From an uncultured virus (IMG/VR IMGVR_UViG_3300035208_003515) (Duplodnaviria; Heunggongvirae; Uroviricota; Caudoviricetes): a DNA stretch of 20,000 nt. The notes under the pieces are model-generated. The model was given only the letters and a program-made list of their open reading frames with translations. It was not told where the DNA came from and did no database searches. The stretch is from the IMG/VR virus record IMGVR_UViG_3300035208_003515; one strand, written 5' to 3'. A program made the translations under genes and the position numbers. Shown in pieces: positions 3,799 through 19,864 of this stretch. Each line of letters starts with the position of its first letter. The first letter of the stretch is position 1.

Positions 3799-5604
3799 GC
3801 GATATTAAGCAGAAGCGCAAACGAAAGCGAATATTCATTATAGTTGGGTTGGCTCTATTTGCATGTGGGGCAGCAGTTGGTGGATATTTCTATTATCAGC
3901 ACCAACAAGAGAACAAAATACCTGAAATTCCTCTAAGTGAAGCTGTGCTGTTATCTAAGGCGCATGTATTTAGTGATATGAAGATAGGCGATAGTCAGAT
4001 TACTTTAACAGTGGCATCAGGATTTACTGATTGGGATTCAATAGCTACCGTAGATACTGATAAAAAGTCTGTCAATTTAAATACAAATAGTAAGGTTACT
4101 GTTGATGTAGGTAGTCTATCGTTAAATGACTTGCAGGATATAGGCTTTGTTGCACCGAAATCATATACTCACAACAGCCAATCAGAAGGTTTTAATTGGG
4201 GTTCACTTCCTGGTATTGTATTACCACTATTGTTTCTTGGTTGGTGGGTTTATATGGCTGTTGTTCTTCTCTGACATAATAGCAGGTGGATTTAATAAGT
4301 ATAAGAAGGATAAAACATCCATATTGTTCTCTGATATTGGTGGATTGTTAGATGCCAAAGAAAAACTGTTAGAGGCTTCACGGTTTATAACAGACAAGTC
4401 TTATTTCCTTAACGTAGGGGCAAAAGTCCCACGTGGAATATTATTAACCGGTGCGCCAGGAGTAGGTAAGACTATGCTTGCACGGGCAATGGCTACTGAG
4501 GCGGGTATAGGATTCTATTATGCTTCAGGAACAGAGTTTCATAGCTATTTTGTGGCGATGGCATCAAGGCGTGTCAAAAAGCTATTCAGATTGGCAAAAC
4601 AGCATCCAAGTATTGTGTTTATTGACGAGTTTGATTCGATAGGTATGGCTCGTAGTTTCAGAGGAACGGATATGTCTACTGATAACGAACATACTCTTAA
4701 TCAGCTACTTGCTGAAATGGATGGGTTTAAAAAAGATACTCAGGTTATCGTTATTGCAGCTACTAACCATCCCGAAGTGCTTGACCCTGCATTGTTAAGG
4801 CCAGGTAGATTCGATAGGCAGATAACCATATCGTTACCTACACTTGCTGAAAGAAGTGAGATAATCAAGATACATCAGAAGGGCAAACCTATAGCAGACG
4901 ATGTTGATATAGATGTTATAGCAAGGCAAACAGGCGGTTTAAGTGGTGCTGATTTGGCAGGAATGATGAATGAGGCAGCGTTGATAGCTGGACGACAGTG
5001 TAAAGATAAGATCAATATGGTTGATATCTCCAATGCCATAGACAATGTTACTGCTGGGAGTGAGCGTAAAGCACTTGTATTGACTGATGTTGATAAAAAG
5101 GTACTTGCTTATCATGAATCAGGCCATGCGCTTGTAGCCTCAATGTTCCCTGAGTGCGGGAAGGTACAGCGGATATCTATTTTGCCTCACGGAATGGCAG
5201 GTGGATTCACACGATTATCAGAAGATAAAGAGAAGTTGGTAATCACAAAGAAAATAGCAATGGAGAATATTTCAATATTGTTTGCCGGACGTGTTGCAGA
5301 GGAAGCAGTTACAGGTGATCTAAGTAGTGGCGCACAAAACGACATAATGAAAGCCAACCAAATAGCTACTGAAATGGTCGCTCATTATGGGATGGGAGCA
5401 AAGTTCGGACTGAGATATTATGATACATCGAGCAAAGAAGCTAATCCTATTATTAATGAAGATATAAAAAGCATCTTGGATGATTGCTACGTGACAGCAA
5501 AACAGGTTATCGAAGGCAACCAGGACAAGTTAAATAAGCTGGCAAGCAAACTCATTGAAGTGGAAGCCTTAAATGCTGATGAAGTAGAGGATTTGTTGAA
5601 ATGA
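3795..5604 (+). CDS. ftsH: FtsH-family ATP-dependent zinc metalloprotease split by a +1 frameshift near 4231-4240 (ORFs 3795-4274 and 4147-5604)
   Basis: The first ORF has TM1, an extracytoplasmic domain and the start of TM2. The second has the rest of TM2, Walker A GAPGVGKT, Walker B IVFIDE, SRH LDPALLRPGRFDR and the zinc motif HESGH. Confidence 0.88.
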
Positions 5605-6368
5605 CCTTAAAAGAACGTACTGCTGCAAGTTTTGGCTTTGAATGGGCAAAGTTCAATGATATATTTGCTGAATATGAAGCCAATTTCCTCAGTTATATCG
5701 CTCCCATAGATAAAGACTTTTTCAAAGGTAAATTAGTCTTAGATGCTGGATGTGGCGCTGGTAGACACTCGTACTTTGCAGCCAAATATGGGGCAAGTGT
5801 TGTAGCAATTGATCTCAGTGAAAAGTCAGTTCAGTCAGCCAGAGATAATCTAAGTGATATGGATGCTCATGTTATACAGAGTGATATCTGCACTTTTGAA
5901 CACCACAGGAAATTTGACTACATCTTTTCAATAGGAGTGCTTCATCACCTTCCCGATCCGCAGGCCGGATTTAATCATTTAGTCACACTTTTAAAAGAAG
6001 GTGGCACTATATCAATATGGGTTTACAGTAAAGAGGACAATTGGCTGGCAATTAATTTCTATGAGCCTATAAGGAAGATCACAACCAGGTTGCCACATAA
6101 ACTACTCTACTATTTATCTTATATTCCTGCTTTAATAGTGGAGATATGTAATAGGTTGAAGCTTCCAATCTTCAGTTATTACATCAAGTTCCCTTTTAAG
6201 ACGAAATTGAATGATGCCTTTGATGTGTTTTCAGCACCGTCAGCAAGGTATTATTCGCTTGGGGATATTTACGATTGGCTTTTACAGGCTGGCTTGCGGG
6301 ATTGCCACCCCCATTATCGTGTATTAGATGGAGTAATTAAAGGAATCATAGGGATGGGTAGAAAGTAA
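5601..6368 (+). CDS. Class I SAM-dependent methyltransferase
   Basis: Motif I VLDAGCGAG, AIDLS and FDYIFSIGVLHH. Confidence 0.9.
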   Translation: MTLKERTAASFGFEWAKFNDIFAEYEANFLSYIAPIDKDFFKGKLVLDAGCGAGRHSYFAAKYGASVVAIDLSEKSVQSARDNLSDMDAHVIQSDICTFEHHRKFDYIFSIGVLHHLPDPQAGFNHLVTLLKEGGTISIWVYSKEDNWLAINFYEPIRKITTRLPHKLLYYLSYIPALIVEICNRLKLPIFSYYIKFPFKTKLNDAFDVFSAPSARYYSLGDIYDWLLQAGLRDCHPHYRVLDGVIKGIIGMGRK

Positions 6369-6411
6369 CTAAAACCTTTGCCGTAGTAAACAAAATTTAT
6401 CACTAAAACTA

Positions 6412-6441
6412 TTGACAGTGACATATAACACATGGTATGCT
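6412..6441 (+). promoter_or_regulatory. Sigma70-type promoter of the tRNA array
   Basis: TTGACA (6412-6417), 18-nt spacer, extended -10 TGgTATGCT (6433-6441). Confidence 0.8.
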
Positions 6442-6450
6442 ACTAAAACA

Positions 6451-6591
6451 ATGCTCAAGCAAATAGGTACACAAACATCAACAAGTGAACGCCTTACTAA
6501 AACGGCGGTTAGATTTGCATTGCCATCTTATTTACACAATATTGATATATCACAGGATTGGCAATCGAATTTGAGGGTTTGTAAAGTCTAA
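6451..6591 (+). CDS. Putative 46-aa leader peptide (uORF) of the tRNA array
   Basis: MLKQIGTQTSTSERLTKTAVRFALPSYLHNIDISQDWQSNLRVCKV*. The ATG is ~3 nt after the predicted TSS with no SD (near-leaderless), and the last codons overlap the antiterminator arm. Confidence 0.6.
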   Translation: MLKQIGTQTSTSERLTKTAVRFALPSYLHNIDISQDWQSNLRVCKV

Positions 6592-6653
6592 GTACAAAGA
6601 CTAAGTAATAAGGATAACATGAACCCTCAAGGATAAAACCAAGAGGGTTTTTT
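6571..6653 (+). terminator. Attenuator: antiterminator 6571-6582/6619-6630 competing with intrinsic terminator 6622-6653
   Basis: AACCCTC (6622-6628) pairs either with GAGGGTT (6643-6649, followed by a T tract) or, as part of ATGAACCCTCAA, with upstream TTGAGGGTTTGT. Confidence 0.7.
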
Positions 6654-6658
6654 AGTGG

Positions 6659-6675
6659 ACTTTAATAATTGAATA
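6659..6675 (+). promoter_or_regulatory. boxA-like antitermination element (similar copies at 6833-6849, 7217-7233, 16600-16616)
   Basis: ACTTTAATAATTGAATA resembles rRNA-operon boxA (CTTTAACAA core) and recurs just before RNA genes. Confidence 0.5.
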
Positions 6676-6678
6676 TGT

Positions 6679-6752
6679 GGCTGTGTCAGCTAATGGCAGG
6701 CTAGAAGTTTTTCACACTTCCAATCAGAGTTCGATCCTCTGTACAGCCACCA
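6679..6752 (+). tRNA. tRNA-Glu(TTC)
   Basis: Acceptor GGCTGTG/TACAGCC; anticodon arm GAAGT-TTTTCAC-ACTTC; encoded CCA. Confidence 0.88.
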
Positions 6753-6753
6753 C

Positions 6754-6828
6754 GGTCTATTGGTGTAGCGGTTTGCATGTTTGCTTGTCAAGCAATTGGT
6801 GATGGTTCAACTCCCTCATAGACCGCCA
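6754..6828 (+). tRNA. tRNA-Asp(GTC)
   Basis: GGTCTAT/ATAGACC; loop TTGTCAA; G73; CCA. Confidence 0.88.
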
Positions 6829-6853
6829 AAGAACTTTAATAATTTTATATTGT

Positions 6854-6943
6854 GGAGAGTTGGCAGAATATGGTAATTGCGGCGGTTTGCTAAACCGTTG
6901 ACCCTAAAAAGTCACACTGGTTCAAATCCAGTACTCTCCGCCA
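6854..6943 (+). tRNA. tRNA-Ser(GCT)
   Basis: GGAGAGT/ACTCTCC; loop TTGCTAA; long variable arm; G73; CCA. Confidence 0.93.
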
Positions 6944-6947
6944 ATGT

Positions 6948-7024
6948 GGTGGGAATAGTGTTAGTGATTAGCACGAGTGGTTGTGACCCACTTAGGACTG
7001 GTTTGAGTCCAGTTTCTCACCCCA
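6948..7024 (+). tRNA. tRNA-His(GTG)
   Basis: Encoded G-1 opposite C73; loop TTGTGAC; A19/U56 variant; CCA. Confidence 0.9.
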
Positions 7025-7028
7025 AAAT

Positions 7029-7105
7029 GGGGCTGTAGCTCAATTTGGGAGAGCGACTCGTTTGCACCGAGTAGGTTGGAGGTTCAATTCCTCTCAGTTC
7101 CACCA
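7029..7105 (+). tRNA. tRNA-Ala(TGC)
   Basis: GGGGCTG/CAGTTCC with G3:U70; loop TTTGCAC; CCA. Confidence 0.93.
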
Positions 7106-7106
7106 T

Positions 7107-7184
7107 GCCAGCGTAGCTCAGTCTGGTAGAGCGGTTGTTTTGTAAACAACGGGTCGCAGGTTCAAATCCATGCCGTTGGCTCCA
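7107..7184 (+). tRNA. tRNA-Thr(TGT)
   Basis: GCCAGCG/CGTTGGC; loop TTTGTAA; one bulged A in the T stem; CCA. Confidence 0.9.
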
Positions 7185-7240
7185 AAGTATTTTTGCGTTA
7201 GTAGCGTGAATATAGCACCTTAATATATGAATAGTTGTTT

Positions 7241-7317
7241 GCAAGAGTAGCTCAATTGGATAGAGTACGTGCTTGCCAAGTACGAGGTTGCGAGTTCGAT
7301 GCTCGTCTCTTGCTCCA
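7241..7317 (+). tRNA. tRNA-Gly(GCC)
   Basis: GCAAGAG/CTCTTGC; loop TTGCCAA; U73; CCA. Confidence 0.92.
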
Positions 7318-7318
7318 T

Positions 7319-7393
7319 TGAGGGTTCGTCTATAGGAAGGACACTGTGTGGCCGCACAGTAACGGTAGGTTCGAGTCCTATCACCCTCAGCCA
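7319..7393 (+). tRNA. Non-canonical tRNA-like RNA, anticodon undetermined
   Basis: Perfect acceptor TGAGGGT/ACCCTCA, G73-CCA, D arm and TTCGAGT T loop, but a 6-nt anticodon loop (TGGCCG) and a 6-bp T stem. Confidence 0.75.
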
Positions 7394-7394
7394 T

Positions 7395-7469
7395 ACTTCG
7401 GTAGTTCAATGGTAGAACACCTCCCTGTTAAGGAGATAGTTGAAGGTTCGAGTCCTTCCTGAAGTGCCA
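7395..7469 (+). tRNA. tRNA-Asn(GTT)
   Basis: ACTTCGG/CTGAAGT; loop CTGTTAA; G73; CCA. Confidence 0.92.
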
Positions 7470-7470
7470 T

Positions 7471-7546
7471 ACTCTCATCGTCTAGTGGTTCAGGATATCA
7501 CCCTCTCACGGTGAGGACATCGGTTCAAATCCGATTGGGAGTACCA
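7471..7546 (+). tRNA. tRNA-Glu(CTC)
   Basis: ACTCTCA/TGGGAGT; loop CTCTCAC; CCA. Confidence 0.92.
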
Positions 7547-7559
7547 TATTTGTCTTCAT

Positions 7560-7634
7560 AGGTCAGTCGTTCAGCGGCTAGGACATTTGCCTCCAAAGCA
7601 AAATACGAGGGTTCGAGTCCTTCTTGACCTGCCA
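7560..7634 (+). tRNA. tRNA-Trp(CCA)
   Basis: AGGTCAG/TTGACCT; loop CTCCAAA; G73; CCA. Confidence 0.92.
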
Positions 7635-7640
7635 AAATAC

Positions 7641-7715
7641 GCAATCGTAACTCAATGGCAGAGTGCCTGCCTTTTAAGCAGTACGTTGTGGGTTCGACTC
7701 CCACCGATTGCACCA
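7641..7715 (+). tRNA. tRNA-Lys(TTT)
   Basis: GCAATCG/CGATTGC; loop CTTTTAA; CCA. Confidence 0.93.
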
Positions 7716-7716
7716 A

Positions 7717-7792
7717 CGAAGCGAAGTTCAATTGGCAGAACATCGGTCTCTTAAACCGAAAGGTATGGGTTCAACTCCCATCGCTTCGACCA
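7717..7792 (+). tRNA. tRNA-Lys(CTT)
   Basis: CGAAGCG/CGCTTCG; loop CTCTTAA; A8; CCA. Confidence 0.92.
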
Positions 7793-7793
7793 T

Positions 7794-7868
7794 CAGAGCG
7801 AAGTGTTTATGGCAGCACACGTGCCCTGGGAGCACGAAGAGAGTGTTCGAATCACTCCGCTTTGACCA
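7794..7868 (+). tRNA. tRNA-Pro(TGG)
   Basis: CAGAGCG/CGCTTTG; loop CCTGGGA (C33); A8/U14; CCA. Confidence 0.88.
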
Positions 7869-7870
7869 AT

Positions 7871-7946
7871 GCCTCTTAAGTGTTTACGGATTACACATCT
7901 GCCCTCCAAGCAGAGGTAGAGGGTTCAAGTCCCTCAAGAGGCTCCA
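7871..7946 (+). tRNA. tRNA-Gly(TCC)
   Basis: GCCTCTT/AAGAGGC; loop CCTCCAA (C33); A8/U14; U73; CCA. Confidence 0.88.
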
Positions 7947-7947
7947 A

Positions 7948-8024
7948 AGGCGAGTAGCCCAATTGGCCGTGGCAACCGGCTTAGAACCGGAAATATGCGA
8001 GTTCGAATCTCGCCTCGCCTACCA
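7948..8024 (+). tRNA. tRNA-Leu(TAG), short variable loop
   Basis: AGGCGAG/CTCGCCT; loop CTTAGAA; A73; CCA. Confidence 0.88.
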
Positions 8025-8025
8025 T

Positions 8026-8100
8026 ACAGTCGTGGCTTGATAGGGAAGCAACTCTTTTACACGGAGTGATATGCAGGTTCGAATCCTGCCGACTGTACCA
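8026..8100 (+). tRNA. tRNA-Val(TAC)
   Basis: ACAGTCG/CGACTGT; loop TTTACAC; CCA. Confidence 0.9.
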
Positions 8101-8124
8101 AAAGTATATAAACCATTGTGTTGT

Positions 8125-8202
8125 GCTTGGGTAGCTCAGTCTGGTAGTAGCACTTCCCTGAAGAGGAAGGTGTCGTTGGTTCAATTCCAACTCCAAGCAC
8201 CA
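8125..8202 (+). tRNA. tRNA-Phe(GAA)
   Basis: GCTTGGG/TCCAAGC; loop CTGAAGA; CCA. Confidence 0.92.
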
Positions 8203-8203
8203 A

Positions 8204-8278
8204 GGCGATGTAGCAAAGTGATAATGCGGATGCCTGCAAAGCATCAGATCGGTGGTTTAAATCCACTCATCGCCTCCA
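8204..8278 (+). tRNA. tRNA-Cys(GCA)
   Basis: GGCGATG/CATCGCC; loop CTGCAAA; U73; A19/U56 variant; CCA. Confidence 0.9.
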
Positions 8279-8279
8279 T

Positions 8280-8354
8280 ACTGGGGTAGCTCAACGGTGG
8301 AGCAGGACTCTGATATAGTCAAGGTTGAAGGTTCGATTCCTTCTCCCAGTACCA
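8280..8354 (+). tRNA. tRNA-Ile(GAT)
   Basis: ACTGGGG/TCCCAGT; loop CTGATAT; CCA. Confidence 0.9.
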
Positions 8355-8359
8355 AATTT

Positions 8360-8433
8360 GCAGTGGTCGTTCAATGGTAGGATGCCAGTCTTATATACTG
8401 GAGATGGGAGTTCAATTCTCTCACACTGTACCA
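8360..8433 (+). tRNA. tRNA-Ile(TAT)
   Basis: GCAGTGG/ACACTGT (one mismatch); CCAGT-CTTATAT-ACTGG; CCA. Confidence 0.85.
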
Positions 8434-8436
8434 CTT

Positions 8437-8510
8437 AGAGCGTTAGTTCAGTGGGAGAACGTCCGTCTCATACGCGGAACACGATTGTCCGATTCAATCA
8501 CGCTCTACCA
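8437..8510 (+). tRNA. tRNA-Met(CAT), probably elongator
   Basis: AGAGCGT/ACGCTCT; loop CTCATAC; T loop TCCGATT; CCA. An Ile2 identity is not excluded. Confidence 0.8.
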
Positions 8511-8511
8511 T

Positions 8512-8589
8512 AGGTAAGTAGCCCAATTTGGCAGAGGCATTAGGTCGAGATCCTATTCAGTACGGGTTCAAATCCCGTCTTACCTACCA
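8512..8589 (+). tRNA. tRNA-Leu(GAG), short variable loop
   Basis: AGGTAAG/CTTACCT; loop TCGAGAT (C33); CCA. Confidence 0.85.
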
Positions 8590-8590
8590 C

Positions 8591-8666
8591 GGGCGAGTAG
8601 ACCAACTGGCAGAGTCGTTACGCTCAAACCGTAAAAGTACTGGTTCGAATCCAGTCTCGCTCACCA
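8591..8666 (+). tRNA. tRNA-Leu(CAA), short variable loop
   Basis: GGGCGAG/CTCGCTC; loop CTCAAAC; CCA. Confidence 0.88.
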
Positions 8667-8670
8667 ACAT

Positions 8671-8749
8671 GGCTCTGTAGCCCAACTGGTAGTATGGCAA
8701 CTGCCTTAAGAGCAGAAAAGTCTCAGTTCGAATCTGAGCAGAGCCACCA
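8671..8749 (+). tRNA. tRNA-Leu(TAA), short variable loop
   Basis: GGCTCTG/CAGAGCC; loop CTTAAGA; CCA. Confidence 0.88.
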
Positions 8750-8760
8750 TTTATCTTTAT

Positions 8761-8835
8761 ACGCTCGTAACCTAGTGGAAAGGTAGCTACCTTCTAAGTA
8801 GCCAAACGTGGGTTCGAGTCCCACCGAGCGTACCA
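8761..8835 (+). tRNA. tRNA-Arg(TCT)
   Basis: ACGCTCG/CGAGCGT; loop CTTCTAA; A20; CCA. Confidence 0.92.
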
Positions 8836-8838
8836 CAT

Positions 8839-8915
8839 TCGTCCGTAGTTCAATTGGATGAACGTCTGTTTCCTAAACAGAATGTATATGGGTTCAAGTC
8901 CCATCGGGCGAACCA
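8839..8915 (+). tRNA. tRNA-Arg(CCT)
   Basis: TCGTCCG/CGGGCGA; loop TTCCTAA; A20; CCA. Confidence 0.9.
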
Positions 8916-8916
8916 T

Positions 8917-9007
8917 CGGCGGGTGTGCTTAGTGGCGATAGCGATGGTCTGTAGAACCATTACCCACGTGGTAAACACCGCAGGTTCGACTCCTGCTCCG
9001 CCGACCA
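8917..9007 (+). tRNA. tRNA-Tyr(GTA) with C1:G72
   Basis: CGGCGGG/TCCGCCG; loop CTGTAGA; long variable arm; A73; CCA. Confidence 0.9.
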
Positions 9008-9010
9008 CTT

Positions 9011-9086
9011 ATCCCAGAAGCTCAAATGGAAGAGCGGATGTTTGCGAAACATCAGGGTATGGGTTCAATTCCCATCTGGGATACCA
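9011..9086 (+). tRNA. tRNA-Arg(GCG)
   Basis: ATCCCAG/CTGGGAT; loop TTGCGAA; A8; A20; CCA. Confidence 0.9.
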
Positions 9087-9097
9087 AGTAGATTAAT

Positions 9098-9184
9098 GGG
9101 TAGTTGGCAGAATGGCTAATGCGCTCGTCTCGAAAACGGGTGAACCGAAAGGTTTTGTGGGTTCGAATCCTACACTACCCGCCA
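9098..9184 (+). tRNA. tRNA-Ser(CGA)
   Basis: GGGTAGT/ACTACCC; loop CTCGAAA; long variable arm; G73; CCA. Confidence 0.93.
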
Positions 9185-9190
9185 AATTTT

Positions 9191-9266
9191 GTCCCCATAG
9201 CGCAATGAACAGAGCGTTACGCTTCGAACGTAAAGGTTGTAGGTTTGAGTCCTACTGGGGATACCA
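9191..9266 (+). tRNA. tRNA-Arg(TCG)
   Basis: GTCCCCA/TGGGGAT; loop CTTCGAA; A19/U56 variant; CCA. Confidence 0.88.
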
Positions 9267-9267
9267 C

Positions 9268-9356
9268 GGGAGGTTGCCAGAGTTCGGTAATGGCACAGTC
9301 TTGAAAACTGACGGAGCGGAAACGCTGCGAAGGTTCAAATCCTTCACCTCCCGCCA
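9268..9356 (+). tRNA. tRNA-Ser(TGA)
   Basis: GGGAGGT/ACCTCCC; loop CTTGAAA; long variable arm; G73; CCA. Confidence 0.93.
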
Positions 9357-9357
9357 T

Positions 9358-9432
9358 CGCAGACAGGGCAAACGGTTAAGCCACTGGCCTCATAAGCCTG
9401 GGGATTGGGTTCAACTCCCAAGTCTGCTACCA
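9358..9432 (+). tRNA. tRNA-Met(CAT), initiator-like
   Basis: C1xU72 mismatch, CGC start, loop CTCATAA, T loop TTCAACT. The anticodon stem CTGGC/GCCTG departs from the canonical three G:C pairs. Confidence 0.8.
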
Positions 9433-9433
9433 T

Positions 9434-9507
9434 TCTCCTGTCGTCTAATGGTCGGACAGCACCCTTTGAAGGTGAGAATGGGGGTTCGATTCCCTCTGGG
9501 AGAACCA
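9434..9507 (+). tRNA. tRNA-Gln(TTG)
   Basis: TCTCCTG/TGGGAGA (U1:A72); loop CTTTGAA; CCA. Confidence 0.9.
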
Positions 9508-9508
9508 T

Positions 9509-9584
9509 TCCCGAATCGTCTAACTGGTAGGACGTGATACTCTGAATATCAAAATGGGCGGTTCGAACCCACCTTCGGGAACCA
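9509..9584 (+). tRNA. tRNA-Gln(CTG)
   Basis: TCCCGAA/TTCGGGA (U1:A72); loop CTCTGAA; imperfect T stem; CCA. Confidence 0.88.
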
Positions 9585-9595
9585 AACGAATAAGA

Positions 9596-9627
9596 AGCCC
9601 CTGTTAGAAGTAGCAGGGGCTATTTTT
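9596..9627 (+). terminator. Intrinsic terminator of the tRNA array
   Basis: AGCCCCTGTTA-GAAG-TAGCAGGGGCT followed by ATTTTT. Confidence 0.85.
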
Positions 9628-9634
9628 ATAAGTA

Positions 9635-9663
9635 TTGACTAAATACTACTTAATAAGTAAAAT
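9635..9663 (+). promoter_or_regulatory. Sigma70-type promoter for the asnB-like operon
   Basis: TTGACT, 17 nt, TAAAAT; SD-like AAGGTGA at 9671-9677. Confidence 0.7.
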
Positions 9664-9687
9664 TAAGCACAAGGTGATTAAAAAATT

Positions 9688-11541
9688 ATGTGTGGAATAG
9701 CCGGAATTTACGGGCGTAACAATACAGATCAGATTACTAAGATGGTTCAATCCATTCAACATCGTGGTGGAGATGGCAACCGAGCCTACACAGATGAAAA
9801 AGTAGCATTGGGACATTCAAGATTAGCCATCATCGACCTCTCAGATAAAGCTACACAGCCCATCTATAATGAAGATGGCTCAGTTATCTTAGTAGTCAAT
9901 GGGGAAATCTATAATTACAAGTCTCTTCGTGAGCAGTTGATTGAAGTCGGACATACCTTTAAGTCAGATTGTGATAGTGAAGTCATAGTCCATGCCTATG
10001 AAGAATGGTATGATGATTTTATTAATAAACTAAGTGGCATGTTCGCACTTGCATTGTATGACAGGAGAGAAGATAGGCTGATTTTAGCCCGTGACCCCAT
10101 CGGTAAGAAGCCCCTCTATTACTGCTGGAAGGCGGGGATACTTTATTTTGCATCGGAAATCAAGGCCATCCTTAAAATCATTCCGGCAGAAGTCAACTAT
10201 GATATGATCTCTACCTATTTAATGTACCAGTATTCAATGGGTAATGAGACTTTATTCAAAGGAATACGGAAACTTGCCCCAGGTTGCATGATGGTTTCAA
10301 ATGGTAGAGGGCATTTAATCAAGAAATACTGGGAGATAGATGATAGGCCGGTCATTACCTGTAATGAAAGGCAGTTAATCGGGACATTGCAGACATATTT
10401 AGAGTGGTCGGTCAAGGCGAGGTTGCAAGCAGACGTTCCAGTAGGGGCGTTTTTATCAGGCGGGATTGATTCAAGTTCTGTGGTTGCGCTGTGGAGATCA
10501 CTTGCCTCTAATCCAATTCATACTTTTACTGCCAGCTTTGAAGGCCATTCTGAAGCTGTATATGCTAAATTAGTCAGTGAACATTTAAGTGTAGAATATC
10601 ACGAAGTACCGATTACTGCTGATATGGTAGCAACAGATATTTCTAAGATAACATGGCATCACGATGAACCTCTTGGAGATGCTGCAGTCATAAATAATTA
10701 CTATCTCGCTCAGGAAGCAAGGAAATATGTCAAAGTAGTCTTAGCCGGTGAAGGTGGGGACGAATTGTTCGGCGGATATCCGTGGTATAAATACGCCCCG
10801 CACCTTGAGACAATGACTAAAACACCTGTATGGTTGCGGAAATTCGGGCAGCGATGGTTAGGGAACGGCAATCCTTTAGATTGGGATGATAAGTTTGACC
10901 GGATACTTCAGTTCCCCATGCAGCAAACTACGGAAGAGATGCTGTTATACCCGACTACATCAATGAGTTTATTGAACCTATCCTGGTTGACAGGCAAACC
11001 ATATCAGGAATTAAGAAGGGAAGTGATCTTAAAAGCACGCACTCCTAACGTAAAGTCATTGTATAATAAGATGTTGGGGATAGACTGCCTTAATTTACTA
11101 CCTGAGAAGTTCTTAATGAAAGCGGATAAGGCAACAATGGCTCACGCTTTAGAAGAACGGCTGCCACTGTTAGATAAAGATATAATTCAATACGCCTTCA
11201 GTTTGCCCACTCACTTAAAAAAGGATAAGTACATTCTAAGGAAAGCAGTAGAGGATTTACTACCAAGCGAGATAGTATGGCGAAAGAAGGCAGGGTTTGG
11301 CACTCCGGTAGCAGAATGGCTGAATAATCCGCAGATGAGGCTTATAACAATGCACTGTTTACGGGATGGCAAGTTATTAAAGGAAATATGCGTATCGGAA
11401 AGATTATCTAAGTTGGGGAAGTATGTAATGGATGGTAAGTTGAAGTCAGGTGGAGCGTTATCTCTGAATGTATCCGGTATGATTTGGAACTTGGTAGCCT
11501 TGCAGGTATGGCATGATAAGTATTTTGGAGGTGAGCAATGA
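9688..11541 (+). CDS. asnB: Glutamine-hydrolysing asparagine synthase-family amidotransferase
   Basis: N-terminal MCGIAG (Ntn catalytic Cys), RLAIID, NGEIYN, LSGGIDSS and GEGGDELFGGY. Confidence 0.93.
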   Translation: MCGIAGIYGRNNTDQITKMVQSIQHRGGDGNRAYTDEKVALGHSRLAIIDLSDKATQPIYNEDGSVILVVNGEIYNYKSLREQLIEVGHTFKSDCDSEVIVHAYEEWYDDFINKLSGMFALALYDRREDRLILARDPIGKKPLYYCWKAGILYFASEIKAILKIIPAEVNYDMISTYLMYQYSMGNETLFKGIRKLAPGCMMVSNGRGHLIKKYWEIDDRPVITCNERQLIGTLQTYLEWSVKARLQADVPVGAFLSGGIDSSSVVALWRSLASNPIHTFTASFEGHSEAVYAKLVSEHLSVEYHEVPITADMVATDISKITWHHDEPLGDAAVINNYYLAQEARKYVKVVLAGEGGDELFGGYPWYKYAPHLETMTKTPVWLRKFGQRWLGNGNPLDWDDKFDRILQFPMQQTTEEMLLYPTTSMSLLNLSWLTGKPYQELRREVILKARTPNVKSLYNKMLGIDCLNLLPEKFLMKADKATMAHALEERLPLLDKDIIQYAFSLPTHLKKDKYILRKAVEDLLPSEIVWRKKAGFGTPVAEWLNNPQMRLITMHCLRDGKLLKEICVSERLSKLGKYVMDGKLKSGGALSLNVSGMIWNLVALQVWHDKYFGGEQ

Positions 11542-19558: not shown

Positions 19559-19864
19559 TTATCCCTCCGTCGCTTTTTCAAGAATAGCACGTATTNNNNN
19601 NNNNNTACGTAAGTTAATGGCCGCTGAGTTAATCAAAGGCAGAAGCTTATTAGCATCCGGGATGACGAATTTAATGTAGCTCTCATTTGGAATAGGTATT
19701 TCAATAGTATTAAACCGAAGTTTACAAGATAGGCACTCCCTTCTCCTGCGTACAGTATTAGTCTGTGAATGCCAGCGGGAGTCAGTTACCCGGCTTGTTC
19801 GGTTACATTTGCAAGTAGGGCAATAAAACCGGGAGCTCGTATCCTTGCTGTTATATCTACTCAC
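19559..19864 (-). CDS. NrdR-like zinc-ribbon protein lacking the ATP-cone (contains assembly gap)
   Basis: CPTC...SRVTDSR......VRRRRECLSC..RF.T.E matches the NrdR N-terminus. Confidence 0.75.
   Translation of the reverse strand: MSRYNSKDTSSRFYCPTCKCNRTSRVTDSRWHSQTNTVRRRRECLSCKLRFNTIEIPIPNESYIKFVIPDANKLLPLINSAAINLRXXXXIRAILEKATEG
19596..19605. other. Assembly gap (10 N)
   Basis: Run of ten N. Confidence 0.99.

Follow-up and report, generated by a model that had tools for sequence, protein, structure and literature searches.

Positions 6412-6678 of the window (the whole 20,000-nt stretch of uncultured Caudoviricetes DNA analyzed here) most likely hold a leader-peptide transcription attenuator, a switch read by the ribosome that would gate promoter-driven transcription into an array of tRNA genes. 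From the sequence comparisons given below, we put the probability of this reading at about 0.8.

Arrangement of the leader in the window

All features described here lie on the + strand. At 6412-6441, where the original prediction had placed it, a sigma-70-type promoter (TTGACA, an 18-nt spacer, TGgTATGCT) matches the consensus at ten of 12 positions; its -35 element is at 6412-6417, its -10 element TATGCT at 6436-6441 and an extended -10 TG at 6433-6434. The ATG of the leader ORF (6451) lies 9 nt past the -10 element, a distance that is mostly 6-7 nt in the related leaders described below, and no Shine-Dalgarno sequence precedes it. Given this spacing, the mRNA likely has a 5′ leader of only 1-3 nt, which agrees with the near-leaderless ORF of the original prediction and puts a short ORF with a usable predicted start at the 5′ end of the transcript. 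The ORF (6451-6591; 46 codons and a stop) translates to the 46-aa peptide MLKQIGTQTSTSERLTKTAVRFALPSYLHNIDISQDWQSNLRVCKV, which aligns with the related leader peptides.

All 20 amino acids are encoded in these 46 codons (P 0.007-0.022). The same holds for 42 of 3640 segments of 46 aa from the window's own proteins (1.2%), for 2.2% of i.i.d. samples and for 0.65% of pooled phage proteins. The 35 distinct codons of the ORF had been called near random, and proved somewhat more unusual than that (simulated mean 30.6, P(≥35) = 0.048). Nineteen of the 20 amino acid types are encoded upstream of the antiterminator arm. The sole Cys codon (6580-6582) sits within this arm, and hence a ribosome stalled at it would keep the arm covered.

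Between the leader ORF and the tRNA genes lies the expected intrinsic terminator, whose stem pairs GAACCCUC (6621-6628) with GAGGGUUU (6643-6650) and whose T6 tract is at 6648-6653. It is modest, with eight pairs, an internal loop and a ΔG of -13.3 kcal/mol (range of estimates -13.3 to -13.8 kcal/mol), and one of 200 shuffles was as stable. A simple terminator scan with a loop limit of 8 missed it, its loop being 14 nt. The competing antiterminator pairs 6570-6582 with 6619-6631 through 13 pairs including G:U, one more than the 12 bp first claimed (ΔG -18.3 kcal/mol, z -3.1; 1/200 shuffles as stable). Since 6621-6631 is common to both helices, they are mutually exclusive. We refer to the antiterminator 5′ arm, read as codons 41-44, as arm 1 (6570-6582); to the common segment, which pairs with arm 1 in the antiterminator or with arm 3 in the terminator, as arm 2 (6619-6631); and to the terminator 3′ arm, which runs into the T tract that encodes the U run, as arm 3 (6643-6653). 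The leader ORF traverses arm 1 and stops 7 nt beyond it, the stop codon being 16 nt past the start of GAGGGTT. A further hairpin upstream (6509-6573; ΔG -16 kcal/mol, z -2.4), comparable to segments 1:2 of the trp attenuator, extends over the first 4 nt of arm 1 and is present in the minimum free energy (MFE) structure of the full leader. Its role may be that of a pause or an anti-antiterminator.

The tRNA array (6679-9584) carries 35 genes with encoded CCA ends, and serves all 20 amino acids. ARAGORN found 34 of them, while Rfam added one (9358-9429) and omitted three of ARAGORN's; the union of 35 and the first gene at 6679, 26 nt past the T tract, are as originally given. A boxA-like motif, GGACTTTAATAA (6657-6668), ends 11 nt before the first tRNA and matches the rrn boxA GCTCTTTAACAA at nine of 12 positions; the rrnB boxA has the sequence TGCTCTTTAACAATTTATCA (PMC2176067). 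No promoter was found between 6653 and 6679, and the array therefore depends on read-through. A strong intrinsic terminator (9596-9621) ends its transcription unit, followed by a promoter for the next gene (9635-9663). Of the array's 33 tRNA species, the leader covers 28, a number reached by 2.2% of windows of gene sequence, which average 22.2. Because the array decodes 51 of 61 sense codons, codon-anticodon matching is uninformative for the window (41/46 leader codons decodable by the array vs 86.6% of codons in the window's genes).

A search for loci related through a methyltransferase yielded one, L001, whose 6771 bases contain no tRNA genes. This suggests that the array was inserted as a cassette, and it ruled L001 out as a source of a homologous leader. 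A search for loci related through an AsnB-like protein found none.

The structures were also compared by folding. In a kinetic proxy, the transcript stopped ahead of arm 3, and 30 nt were blocked to stand for a ribosome. For the window and for all 15 of 15 related loci, arm 1 held arm 2 without a ribosome or with an early stall, and arm 2 was free with a ribosome on the last ten or so codons. Equilibrium folds were mixed: the MFE structure of the window was the terminator plus the 6509-6573 hairpin both without a ribosome and with one at codons 8, 13, 22 and 26, and the terminator was the MFE structure in every state in 7/12 related loci. Whole-leader equilibrium folds thus do not cleanly reproduce the switch, and we treated them as uninformative on the kinetic choice. 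Equilibrium folds are likewise not known to reproduce the switch of the trp leader, where the choice of structure is kinetic. The positioning of the ORF such that ribosome location picks the structure is seen in the geometry of the window and in the ribosome-block proxy, but not consistently at equilibrium. The proposal that stalling anywhere upstream gives read-through stands in the kinetic proxy only, and does not extend to the last ten or so codons, the only Cys codon among them.

A family of leaders preceding phage tRNA arrays

A three-arm pattern retrieved 87 stretches from IMG/VR, or 61 after removal of redundancy. tRNA genes were present in 33 of the 38 loci scanned, and 42 of 46 distinct leaders had tRNAs downstream on the same strand. 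By comparison, only one of 120 matches in bacterial genomes had a downstream tRNA, and many of these matches were classical Ile/Leu/Val-rich or Thr-rich leaders. The GAGGGTT/AACCCTC pair is itself a generic terminator core, which also occurs in unrelated bacterial leaders and beside tRNA T-arms. An ATG-initiated ORF of 15-60 codons ran across arm 1, with its stop 0-45 nt past the start of the arm, in 92 of 101 loci. Eighty-seven of these 92 share one frame and read GAG GGT. The window reads TTG AGG GTT instead, a frame found in 2/92 (e.g., L137); since the geometry is kept, the minority frame is a mark of divergence and no grounds for exclusion from the family. Twenty-nine of the 46 distinct leaders have a -10 element whose end is 6-9 nt from the ATG and count as the leaderless type; a Shine-Dalgarno sequence is present in ten. 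A boxA-like motif (≥9/12 matches) occurs in 42 of 47 family spacers, as opposed to 6.6% of shuffled spacers, and as in the window a tRNA array follows shortly 3′ on the same strand. The leader peptides that we group as class A have a KHLPL..GW motif in common.

The family was found in uncultured phages. blastn of the class A and class B leaders against cultured phages gave no match, and the window region matched cultured phages through its tRNA genes only. We considered the tRNA region of T5 as the same device and rejected it, since its small ORFs lie directly against the tRNAs, with neither a terminator nor an alternative pairing. A pattern built from the window's first tRNA gave no matches, nor did metagenome_contigs yield any to a 32-base pattern specific to the window's arms. 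For the window leader itself, only near-identical contigs were retrieved and no orthologue of moderate divergence, and the case for its conservation therefore rests on family membership. In Rfam scans of the window and of two family leaders, only tRNA reached the gathering threshold. His_leader was the weak best match of the two family leaders (21-23 bits vs a gathering score of 49), and neither these two nor the window leader had a T-box match at E ≤ 1.

A second sample, picked without regard to the arms by a boxA plus tRNA-Gln pattern, comprised 42 loci and 32 distinct leaders. Every one of these arm-blind leaders had the terminator and arm 1, together with an ORF 37-43 codons long. Eighteen encoded all 20 amino acid types and 14 encoded 19. 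The null for 40-aa windows gives at least 19 types in 3.65% and 20 in 0.06%. The presence of all amino acids, which had been offered as only suggestive, is therefore a trait conserved before near-complete arrays. The stop codon lies 11-18 nt past the start of GAGGGTT in this sample and 9-30 nt past it in the first IMG/VR leader set, so its position is fixed relative to arm 1, as the original prediction had called for.

Covariation of the three pairing segments was seen as well. Among the arm-blind leaders, the arms change in three-way compensatory fashion, e.g., GAGGGTT/AACCCTC, TAGGGGTT/AACCCCTA, GGGGATTTT/AAAATCCCC and GGGGGCTTGT/ACAAGCCCCC. In alignment A3, which comprises 28 sequences, 98.0% of cells are paired in the antiterminator, with three pairs changed on both sides, and 99.6% in the terminator, with five such pairs. 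None of 500 shuffles reached either value, and slid controls gave at most 81%. A covariance model (R1) built from A3 with the window left out matched the window at 6569-6657 with 30.9 bits (E 1.7e-4, a rough value), the next best match being 11.7 bits. These comparisons place the window, as a divergent member, in a conserved class of attenuators that are predicted to be read by the ribosome and to gate phage tRNA arrays. The trp/his-type geometry first noted in the window is thus borne out at the level of sequence, with the element almost always directly upstream of tRNA arrays.

Leader composition was compared with array content at 12 loci with 8-kb flanks; L231 and L232, which had no clear leader ORF, were excluded. 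Of the amino acid types of the arrays, 96.9% were found in the array's own leader, compared with 83.3% in shuffled pairings (p = 5e-5), and the fraction of leader residues within the array's amino acid set was 0.716 vs 0.546. Leader residues were enriched in the array's amino acids over the locus proteome in nine of the 12 loci (binomial p < 0.05). Of the 61 sense codons, any one of these arrays can decode only 12-45, yet 216 of 301 leader codons ahead of the arm were decodable by the leader's own array. Genome G008, with two arrays, provides a reciprocal case: the matched leader-array pairs share 9/9 and 11/11 types, and the crossed pairs 5/11 and 3/9. The match is weak or saturated at some loci (10/14 types in L223, p = 0.37 in L228, saturation in L224 and L225). 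Leaders before partial arrays list those arrays' amino acids. By these family statistics, and by the 20 of 20 amino acids and 28 of 33 species of the window, the regulatory codons fit the product of the controlled genes.

Other explanations for the leader

A factor might control the array instead. Here, a repressor on ACTAAAAC repeats, an RNA-binding antiterminator or, as in a T-box, an uncharged tRNA would pick the hairpin or shut the promoter, and the ORF would be a by-product. We consider this improbable. The ACTAAAAC box occurs in seven exact copies in the window against 0.92 expected, a count reached by none of 200 shuffles, and four copies cluster in 6368-6503. Box 1 is at 6368-6375; box 2 (6402-6409) ends 2 nt before the -35 element; box 3 (6442-6449) falls on the expected start of transcription, past the -10 element and ahead of the ATG; and box 4 (6496-6503) forms part of the ORF, where it occupies the loop of a small CGCC/GGCG hairpin. 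With exact copies on both sides of the -35 element, at the start site and within the leader, the box is possibly an operator. The repressor TrcR of the Anabaena tRNA operon is likewise reported to bind direct repeats, which there span the -10 element and the start site (PMC8421152, PMC10272220). The single substitution across 6369-6800 in a related contig (run X5), C6449T, falls in box 3. The repeats are specific to the window, however, with none seen in the related leaders inspected. As a family signature the box was rejected: a triple-box scan of IMG/VR returned at least 126 stretches, none like the window. T-box and other non-tRNA Rfam families all scored below threshold, and a factor alone leaves the conserved ORF, frame, stop position and amino acid census unexplained. 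A repressor acting in addition to attenuation could amount to dual control, which is not a true rival.

Next in rank, and unlikely, is that the promoter, ORF and terminator form an independent small gene or a ~200-nt RNA with its own terminator, the array being transcribed by leak-through or from elsewhere and the complementarity of arms 1 and 2 being incidental. The unit is indeed self-complete, and the common motif of the class A peptides might mean that the peptide itself matters. Moreover, a further promoter follows the terminator in 11 of 37 family spacers, where attenuation would therefore control only part of the transcription of the array. The window has no such promoter, however, so its array needs read-through. 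A small-gene origin also does not account for the covariation of arm 1 with arms 2 and 3 across lineages, nor for a leader composition that follows array content, reciprocally within one genome too. Likewise, 19-20 amino acid types in ~40 residues in every one of the 32 arm-blind leaders would be unexpected for a folded small protein.

Lastly, the terminator may serve only to end upstream transcription, with the ORF and alternative pairing having arisen at random in an AT-rich spacer, as the generic arm core and the only moderate improbability of each single window feature (P 0.005-0.05) would allow; the strong promoter upstream of the terminator, the full architecture in 0/960 shuffled leaders, the unique covariance-model match in the window and the family evidence (tRNA association, arm covariation and leader-array match) make this very unlikely.

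Proposed mechanism and relation to known attenuators

Under the attenuator reading, the promoter would start an mRNA with the first codon almost at its 5′ end. A lead ribosome that paces RNA polymerase would reach the last ten or so codons and cover arm 1, leaving arms 2 and 3 to pair and transcription to end at ~6653. Should the ribosome lag or stall earlier, arms 1 and 2 would pair once arm 2 is made, and no terminator would form. The read-through polymerase would then cross the boxA-like element, probably loading Nus factors for the untranslated array, and proceed into the tRNAs. The leader samples nearly all amino acids and 28 of the array's 33 tRNA species, and for this reason tRNA output should rise when almost any one of these runs short. 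The new tRNAs would restore fast reading and turn the array off again, a negative feedback. The trigger is presumably a shortage of tRNA, with tRNA cleavage, starvation and antibiotics as candidate causes. Slow reading by ribosomes would thus probably lead the phage to make tRNAs of its own.

In enterobacterial attenuators (trp, his, leu, thr, ilv and pheA), ribosome position decides between terminator and antiterminator. The phage element resembles these in its promoter-proximal short ORF, in the terminator before the controlled genes and in the antiterminator strand common to the terminator. Multivalent thr and ilv leaders likewise list several amino acids, and Colwellia Ile/Leu/Val-rich leaders use identical GAGGGTT/AACCCTC arms. 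Unlike the enterobacterial systems, the phage element controls tRNAs rather than biosynthetic enzymes, and its leader has no single-codon run; instead, it surveys as many as 20 amino acids, in a set that matches the array. Its ORF traverses the antiterminator arm itself, such that a segment 1 is not strictly needed. Many of the phage leaders are leaderless mRNAs, and a boxA-like element follows the terminator. In E. coli, pheST is preceded by an attenuator with the pheM leader, which stands before the phenylalanyl-tRNA synthetase gene and reports the supply of charged tRNA. Both it and the phage element are leader-peptide attenuators, but pheST responds to one amino acid, governs a synthetase rather than tRNA genes, and is cellular, not viral.

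The mycobacterial whiB7 leader and leaderless poly-Cys uORFs are reported to be leaders in which a stall on a short uORF relieves premature termination (PMC10274678, bioRxiv 10.1101/834739). In being leaderless short ORFs they resemble many of the phage leaders; they differ in controlling a transcription factor or cysteine-related operons, and are not known to match a tRNA set or to occur in phages. The Anabaena trn operon, an array of 26 tRNAs under the repressor TrcR, is reported to be silent and to come on when translation is impaired (PMC8421152, PMC10272220). Its promoter direct repeats recall the ACTAAAAC boxes of the window. Control of trn is by a DNA-binding repressor at the promoter, whereas the phage device would be an RNA switch read by the ribosome; the terms "attenuat-", "leader" and "terminator" are absent from PMC8421152.

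As with the rrn-type boxA, a GCTCTTTAACAA-like motif stands just before untranslated stable-RNA genes in the phage family, the copy in the window having diverged. By analogy, it would bind NusB/S10 and may counteract Rho. T-box riboswitches also choose between terminator and antiterminator to report tRNA status, but they do so by binding uncharged tRNA directly, with no ORF required, whereas the phage element centers on a conserved ORF. In a search of the full-text literature, we found no published account of leader-peptide control of tRNA genes.

Among the proposals for why phages carry tRNA genes are that these compensate for codon usage, stand in for host tRNAs lost to degradation, or let the phage evade anticodon nucleases. 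With somewhat better than even odds, we suggest that a self-correcting "codon census" loop controls phage tRNA arrays. In it, the leader holds one or a few codons for each tRNA species supplied, any shortfall turns the array on, and the new tRNAs turn it off. Such a shortfall could come from anticodon-nuclease cleavage of host tRNAs, from host shut-off or from a late-infection mismatch in codon usage. The sequences would make this device modular, with two arrays in one genome each having a matched leader, as well as often leaderless, boxA-coupled and widespread in uncultured phages.

A conserved leader that lists its array's amino acids would mean that the phage gauges decoding speed for those codons and supplies tRNAs on demand. 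It would extend trp-type attenuation to stable-RNA genes and to pan-amino acid sensing. The switch gives a sequence signature for locating regulated arrays, and the leader would be a compact natural part that reports translation capacity. If the codon-census reading is true, this would be the first leader-peptide attenuator known for tRNA genes, and phages would carry in it a built-in sensor of host defenses that target tRNA.

A self-contained tRNA unit and its leader in the window

The genes of the window are compactly arranged, largely on one strand, and include glycosyltransferases, an FtsH-like protein with AAA and M41 protease domains (4147-5604), a methyltransferase (5601-6368), an asparagine synthase (9688-11541), an epimerase and a small protein with an NrdR-like zinc ribbon (19559-19864, minus strand). 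This gene content agrees with a large uncultured phage, as do the lack of a close relative among the cultured phages searched and the occurrence of near-identical DNA in metagenomes from groundwater, landfill and aquatic sites. The methyltransferase and asparagine synthase genes flank a unit with its own promoter (6412-6441), a 230-nt leader, a tRNA array (6679-9584) and a strong closing terminator (9596-9621), past which a new promoter is found (9635-9663). The array serves all 20 amino acids, and the 35 genes of the original prediction correspond to the union of two methods: ARAGORN called 34, while Rfam contributed one more (9358-9429) and missed three of ARAGORN's, with tRNA-His (6949-7024) and tRNA-Pro(tgg) (7794-7868) absent from the Rfam listing at gathering. 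A tRNA-like gene at 7319-7393, below Rfam gathering, was assigned a four-base anticodon (GGCC) by ARAGORN; its anticodon loop could be read as 8 nt, in a frameshift-suppressor-like or degenerate tRNA. Since an IMG/VR relative identified by its methyltransferase (60% identity) carries no tRNA genes within the 6771 bases fetched, the promoter-leader-array-terminator unit (within 6369-9687) looks, by sequence comparison, like a cassette inserted after the methyltransferase gene. In a related contig from sequencing run X5, similarity to the window is lost immediately before the cassette.

Each part proposed for the leader was recovered. The promoter, which includes an extended -10 TG, agrees with the consensus at 10 of 12 positions. 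The 46-codon ORF (6451-6591) is present and lacks a Shine-Dalgarno sequence; its ATG is 9 nt from the -10 element, a near-leaderless arrangement common to the family of phage leaders described below. The intrinsic terminator (6621-6650 plus T6) has a predicted stability of -13.3 to -13.8 kcal/mol, and the alternative helix between arm 1 (6570-6582, the 5′ antiterminator arm) and arm 2 (6619-6631, the segment shared by both structures) one of -18.3 kcal/mol; for each, 1 of 200 shuffles was as stable. The peptide does contain all 20 amino acids, as found for 1.2% of 46-residue windows in the window's own proteins, 0.65% in pooled phage proteins and 2.2% of i.i.d. samples. The count of 35 distinct codons was correct and is somewhat more unusual than the original description of it as near random expectation, since only 5% of simulated ORFs have as many. 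The 46 codons of the ORF test 28 of 33 array tRNA species, compared with a mean of 22.2 ± 2.5 for gene windows, 2.2% of which reach 28.

Four exact ACTAAAAC direct repeats (6368-6375, 6402-6409, 6442-6449 and 6496-6503) lie on both sides of the -35 element and overlap the expected start site. The window contains seven copies against 0.92 expected, and allowing one mismatch revealed no additional clustering within it. The arrangement is reminiscent of the Anabaena tRNA operon, which is reported to be repressed by TrcR through repeat operators (PMC8421152, PMC10272220). No such repeats were seen among the related leaders inspected, and by analogy they may form an operator, adding a repressor layer peculiar to this phage. 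The X5 DNA contig has four listed differences from the window in the final 25 bases of the methyltransferase gene and a single one within 6369-6800, C6449T, which lies inside a ACTAAAAC repeat; no other natural variation was observed in the leader. DNA contigs of another phage, from two landfill runs, match the window at 6641-6697 only, the terminator loop upstream being different.

Related leaders ahead of phage tRNA arrays

We scanned IMG/VR for GAGGGTT and AACCCTC separated by 30-55 bases, with GAGGGTTTT following after another 8-24 bases, a pattern for which fewer than one chance match is expected on a rough estimate with uniform base composition. The scan returned 87 stretches, 61 of them non-redundant. 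tRNA genes lay within 1.5 kb in 33 of 38 representative loci, and 42 of 46 distinct leaders had same-strand downstream tRNA genes, usually starting 14-80 nt past the terminator. When 185,579 bacterial and archaeal species genomes were scanned, at least 120 stretches matched, and among the matches listed 1 of 120 had a downstream tRNA. Many of those listed are classical leaders, such as the Ile/Leu/Val-rich ORF (...ILVVVIIKSPRGFSLS) with GAGGGTT/AACCCTC arms of a large Colwellia group (L237, L240 and many others) and the Thr-rich leaders with the same arms in Calothrix and relatives, heterocystous cyanobacteria (L262, L263, L329); further matches are tRNA T-arms adjoining terminators by chance. 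The arm sequence alone is thus a generic attenuator and terminator core, and the phage matches are distinguished by their placement ahead of tRNA arrays. Phage-type leaders were also found in two contigs binned as bacterial genomes, an Erysipelotrichaceae MAG (L254) and a genome contig (L321) with tRNA-Trp 9 nt past the terminator, and these are therefore probably phage or prophage DNA.

In 92 of 101 loci, arm 1 is crossed by an ATG ORF of 15-60 codons whose stop lies 0-45 nt past the arm start. We also assembled an arm-blind sample, picked solely by a boxA-like motif and the start of the first tRNA-Gln (42 loci, 32 distinct). Only 12 of these 32 leaders have GAGGGTT arms; every leader of the 32 has a terminator, preceded by an arm complementary to its 5′ arm, and a 37-43-codon ORF running through that preceding arm, with the stop codon 11-18 nt past the arm start, so the predicted conservation of the stop position was borne out. 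The three arms co-vary, as in GAGGGTTTTGG / CCAAAACCCTC, GGGGGTT (a G:U variant), AAGGGTTTGTG / CACAGACCCTT, TAGGGGTTGT / ACAACCCCTA, GGGGATTTTG / CAAAATCCCC and GGGGGCTTGT / ACAAGCCCCC. Pairing in a 28-sequence family alignment (A3) reaches 98.0% in the antiterminator core, where three pairs changed on both sides, and 99.6% in the terminator, where five did. For both helices 0 of 500 shuffles matched the observed values, and slid controls were at most 81% paired. The expected covariation of the three pairing segments is thus seen both in paired changes and in three-way arm changes. G:U pairs are frequent, which points to pairing at the RNA rather than the DNA level. At the sequence level, then, both the geometry and its conservation are evident.

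All 20 amino acids occur in 18 of the arm-blind leaders and 19 in the remaining 14, whereas among 40-residue windows of phage proteins 0.06% have 20 types and 3.65% at least 19, and 19-20 types are kept even in very divergent peptides such as MKNISIHLSMTLCAKSATTWQADYRLPRSENNGFIVSVGVVYS. The reading frame at arm 1 is GAG GGT in 87 of 92 family ORFs. The -10 hexamer ends 6-9 nt (mostly 6-7) before the ATG in 29 of 46 distinct leaders, which from this spacing are predicted to be leaderless mRNAs; 10 have an AGGA-type Shine-Dalgarno sequence and 7 fit neither start criterion. In one subset, class A, the ORF contains a conserved small hairpin (CUCACGC ... GCGAUUGAG) located roughly 35 and 12 nt ahead of arm 1, which may serve for pausing and in part accounts for the apparent peptide conservation (..CSR..).

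A generic detector applied to the window recovered exactly the parts originally predicted, and the full architecture appeared in 0 of 960 shuffled leaders. A covariance model built from A3 without the window (R1) gave 6569-6657 a score of 30.9 bits (approximate E 1.7e-4), and no other match in 40 kb exceeded 11.7 bits. In DNA alignment with the family, the -35, -10, ATG, arms, T tract and boxA-like motif of the window are all collinear. Its leader is longer and its peptide aligns weakly (16-30% identity), with a W..R spacing that occurs in divergent members as WQSISR or WQADYR. Arm 1 is framed TTG AGG GTT, as in L137 and in only 2 of 92 family leaders overall, and holds the leader's sole Cys codon. 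By these comparisons, the window is a divergent member of the family.

The boxA-like motif (GCTCTTTAACAA-like, rrn-type; the rrnB boxA is named in PMC2176067) follows the terminator and, in the family loci, precedes the first tRNA by 25-30 nt; at least 9 of 12 positions match in 42 of 47 family spacers, a score reached by 6.6% of shuffled spacers. The window copy (6657-6668) matches at 9 of 12. The motif probably allows polymerase to stay processive across the untranslated array. In 11 of 37 spacers (L364, L374, L382, L150, L188, L131 and others), a second sigma-70-type promoter follows the terminator and precedes boxA, so those arrays are served by two promoters in tandem and attenuation acts on the first alone; the window spacer has no second promoter.

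Correspondence between leader and array

To compare leaders with arrays we used the 8-kb flanks of 14 loci, of which L231 and L232 were dropped for want of a clear leader ORF. The leader includes every amino acid of the array tRNAs in 10 of the 12 loci kept. Leaders cover 96.9% of their own array types versus 83.3% in shuffled pairings (p=5e-5), and the fraction of leader residues within the array's amino-acid set is 0.716 versus 0.546. For instance, the leader MTYFICKFEEYMTWEGSRD precedes an array of exactly Ile, Tyr, Phe, Glu, Lys, Lys, Met and Cys, and an Asn/Ile/Thr/Leu/Arg-rich leader precedes Asn, Asn, Ile, Arg, Ile, Thr and Leu. Under strict wobble, 216 of 301 leader codons ahead of the arm are decoded by the locus's own array, although arrays decode only 12-45 of 61 sense codons. 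Enrichment in array amino acids relative to the own-locus proteome was significant in 9 of 12 loci (binomial p<0.05), the exceptions being L224 and L225, which are saturated, and L228 (p=0.37). The cleanest control is a 330-kb phage contig (G008; L226, L227) with two arrays of complementary amino-acid sets, each preceded by a leader that matches it: coverage is 9/9 and 11/11 types in the matched pairs and 5/11 and 3/9 in the crossed ones. Class A leaders precede full arrays of 25-27 tRNAs for 19-20 amino acids.

Proposed switching and relation to known attenuators

As a kinetic proxy, we cut the transcript just ahead of arm 3 (6643-6653 with the T tract, the terminator 3′ arm) and applied a 30-nt ribosome block. 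Arm 1 held arm 2 without a ribosome or with the A site at codon 2 to ~37, and a ribosome on the last ~10 codons or the stop codon freed arm 2. The outcome was alike in the window and 15 of 15 family loci, the stop-codon result in three class C loci being a steric artefact. At equilibrium, a hairpin at 6509-6573 (-16 kcal/mol) plus the terminator was the window's ground state without a ribosome or with one at codons 8, 13, 22 or 26; the antiterminator was favored at codons 4, 18, 30 and 34, and the terminator was favored in every state for 7 of 12 family loci. The claim that stalling anywhere upstream permits read-through therefore holds in the proxy for codons 2 to ~37 but not in the equilibrium folds. 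As isolated helices, the antiterminator is more stable than the terminator (-23.0 versus -18.6 kcal/mol, family mean; -18.1 versus -13.3 kcal/mol, window).

We infer switching itself, and since the equilibrium folds disagree with it, the choice between helices would have to be kinetic. The structural decision in the trp attenuator is likewise kinetic. In the proposed mechanism, a ribosome on the last ~10 codons would free arm 2, and one that is absent or further upstream would leave arm 2 on arm 1. In the window model, the codons sensed could be all upstream ones, or only ~16-37 if the 6509-6573 hairpin behaves as trp segments 1:2.

No Rfam family covers the leader element, and full-text searching of mostly open-access and recent papers turned up no description of tRNA genes controlled by a leader peptide, though an older one, for example from the T5 era, may exist. 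The tRNA region of phage T5 differs in lacking this geometry, with no terminator/antiterminator, and is interspersed with small ORFs after promoters. An ORF of this region, T5.070 (L354, record 34627-34755), encodes 42 residues, six of them Cys (CxxC-type), directly upstream of tRNA-Cys. The mechanism itself is of an already known kind, trp-type attenuation; the new points are tRNA genes as its target, the census-like leader and the phage setting.
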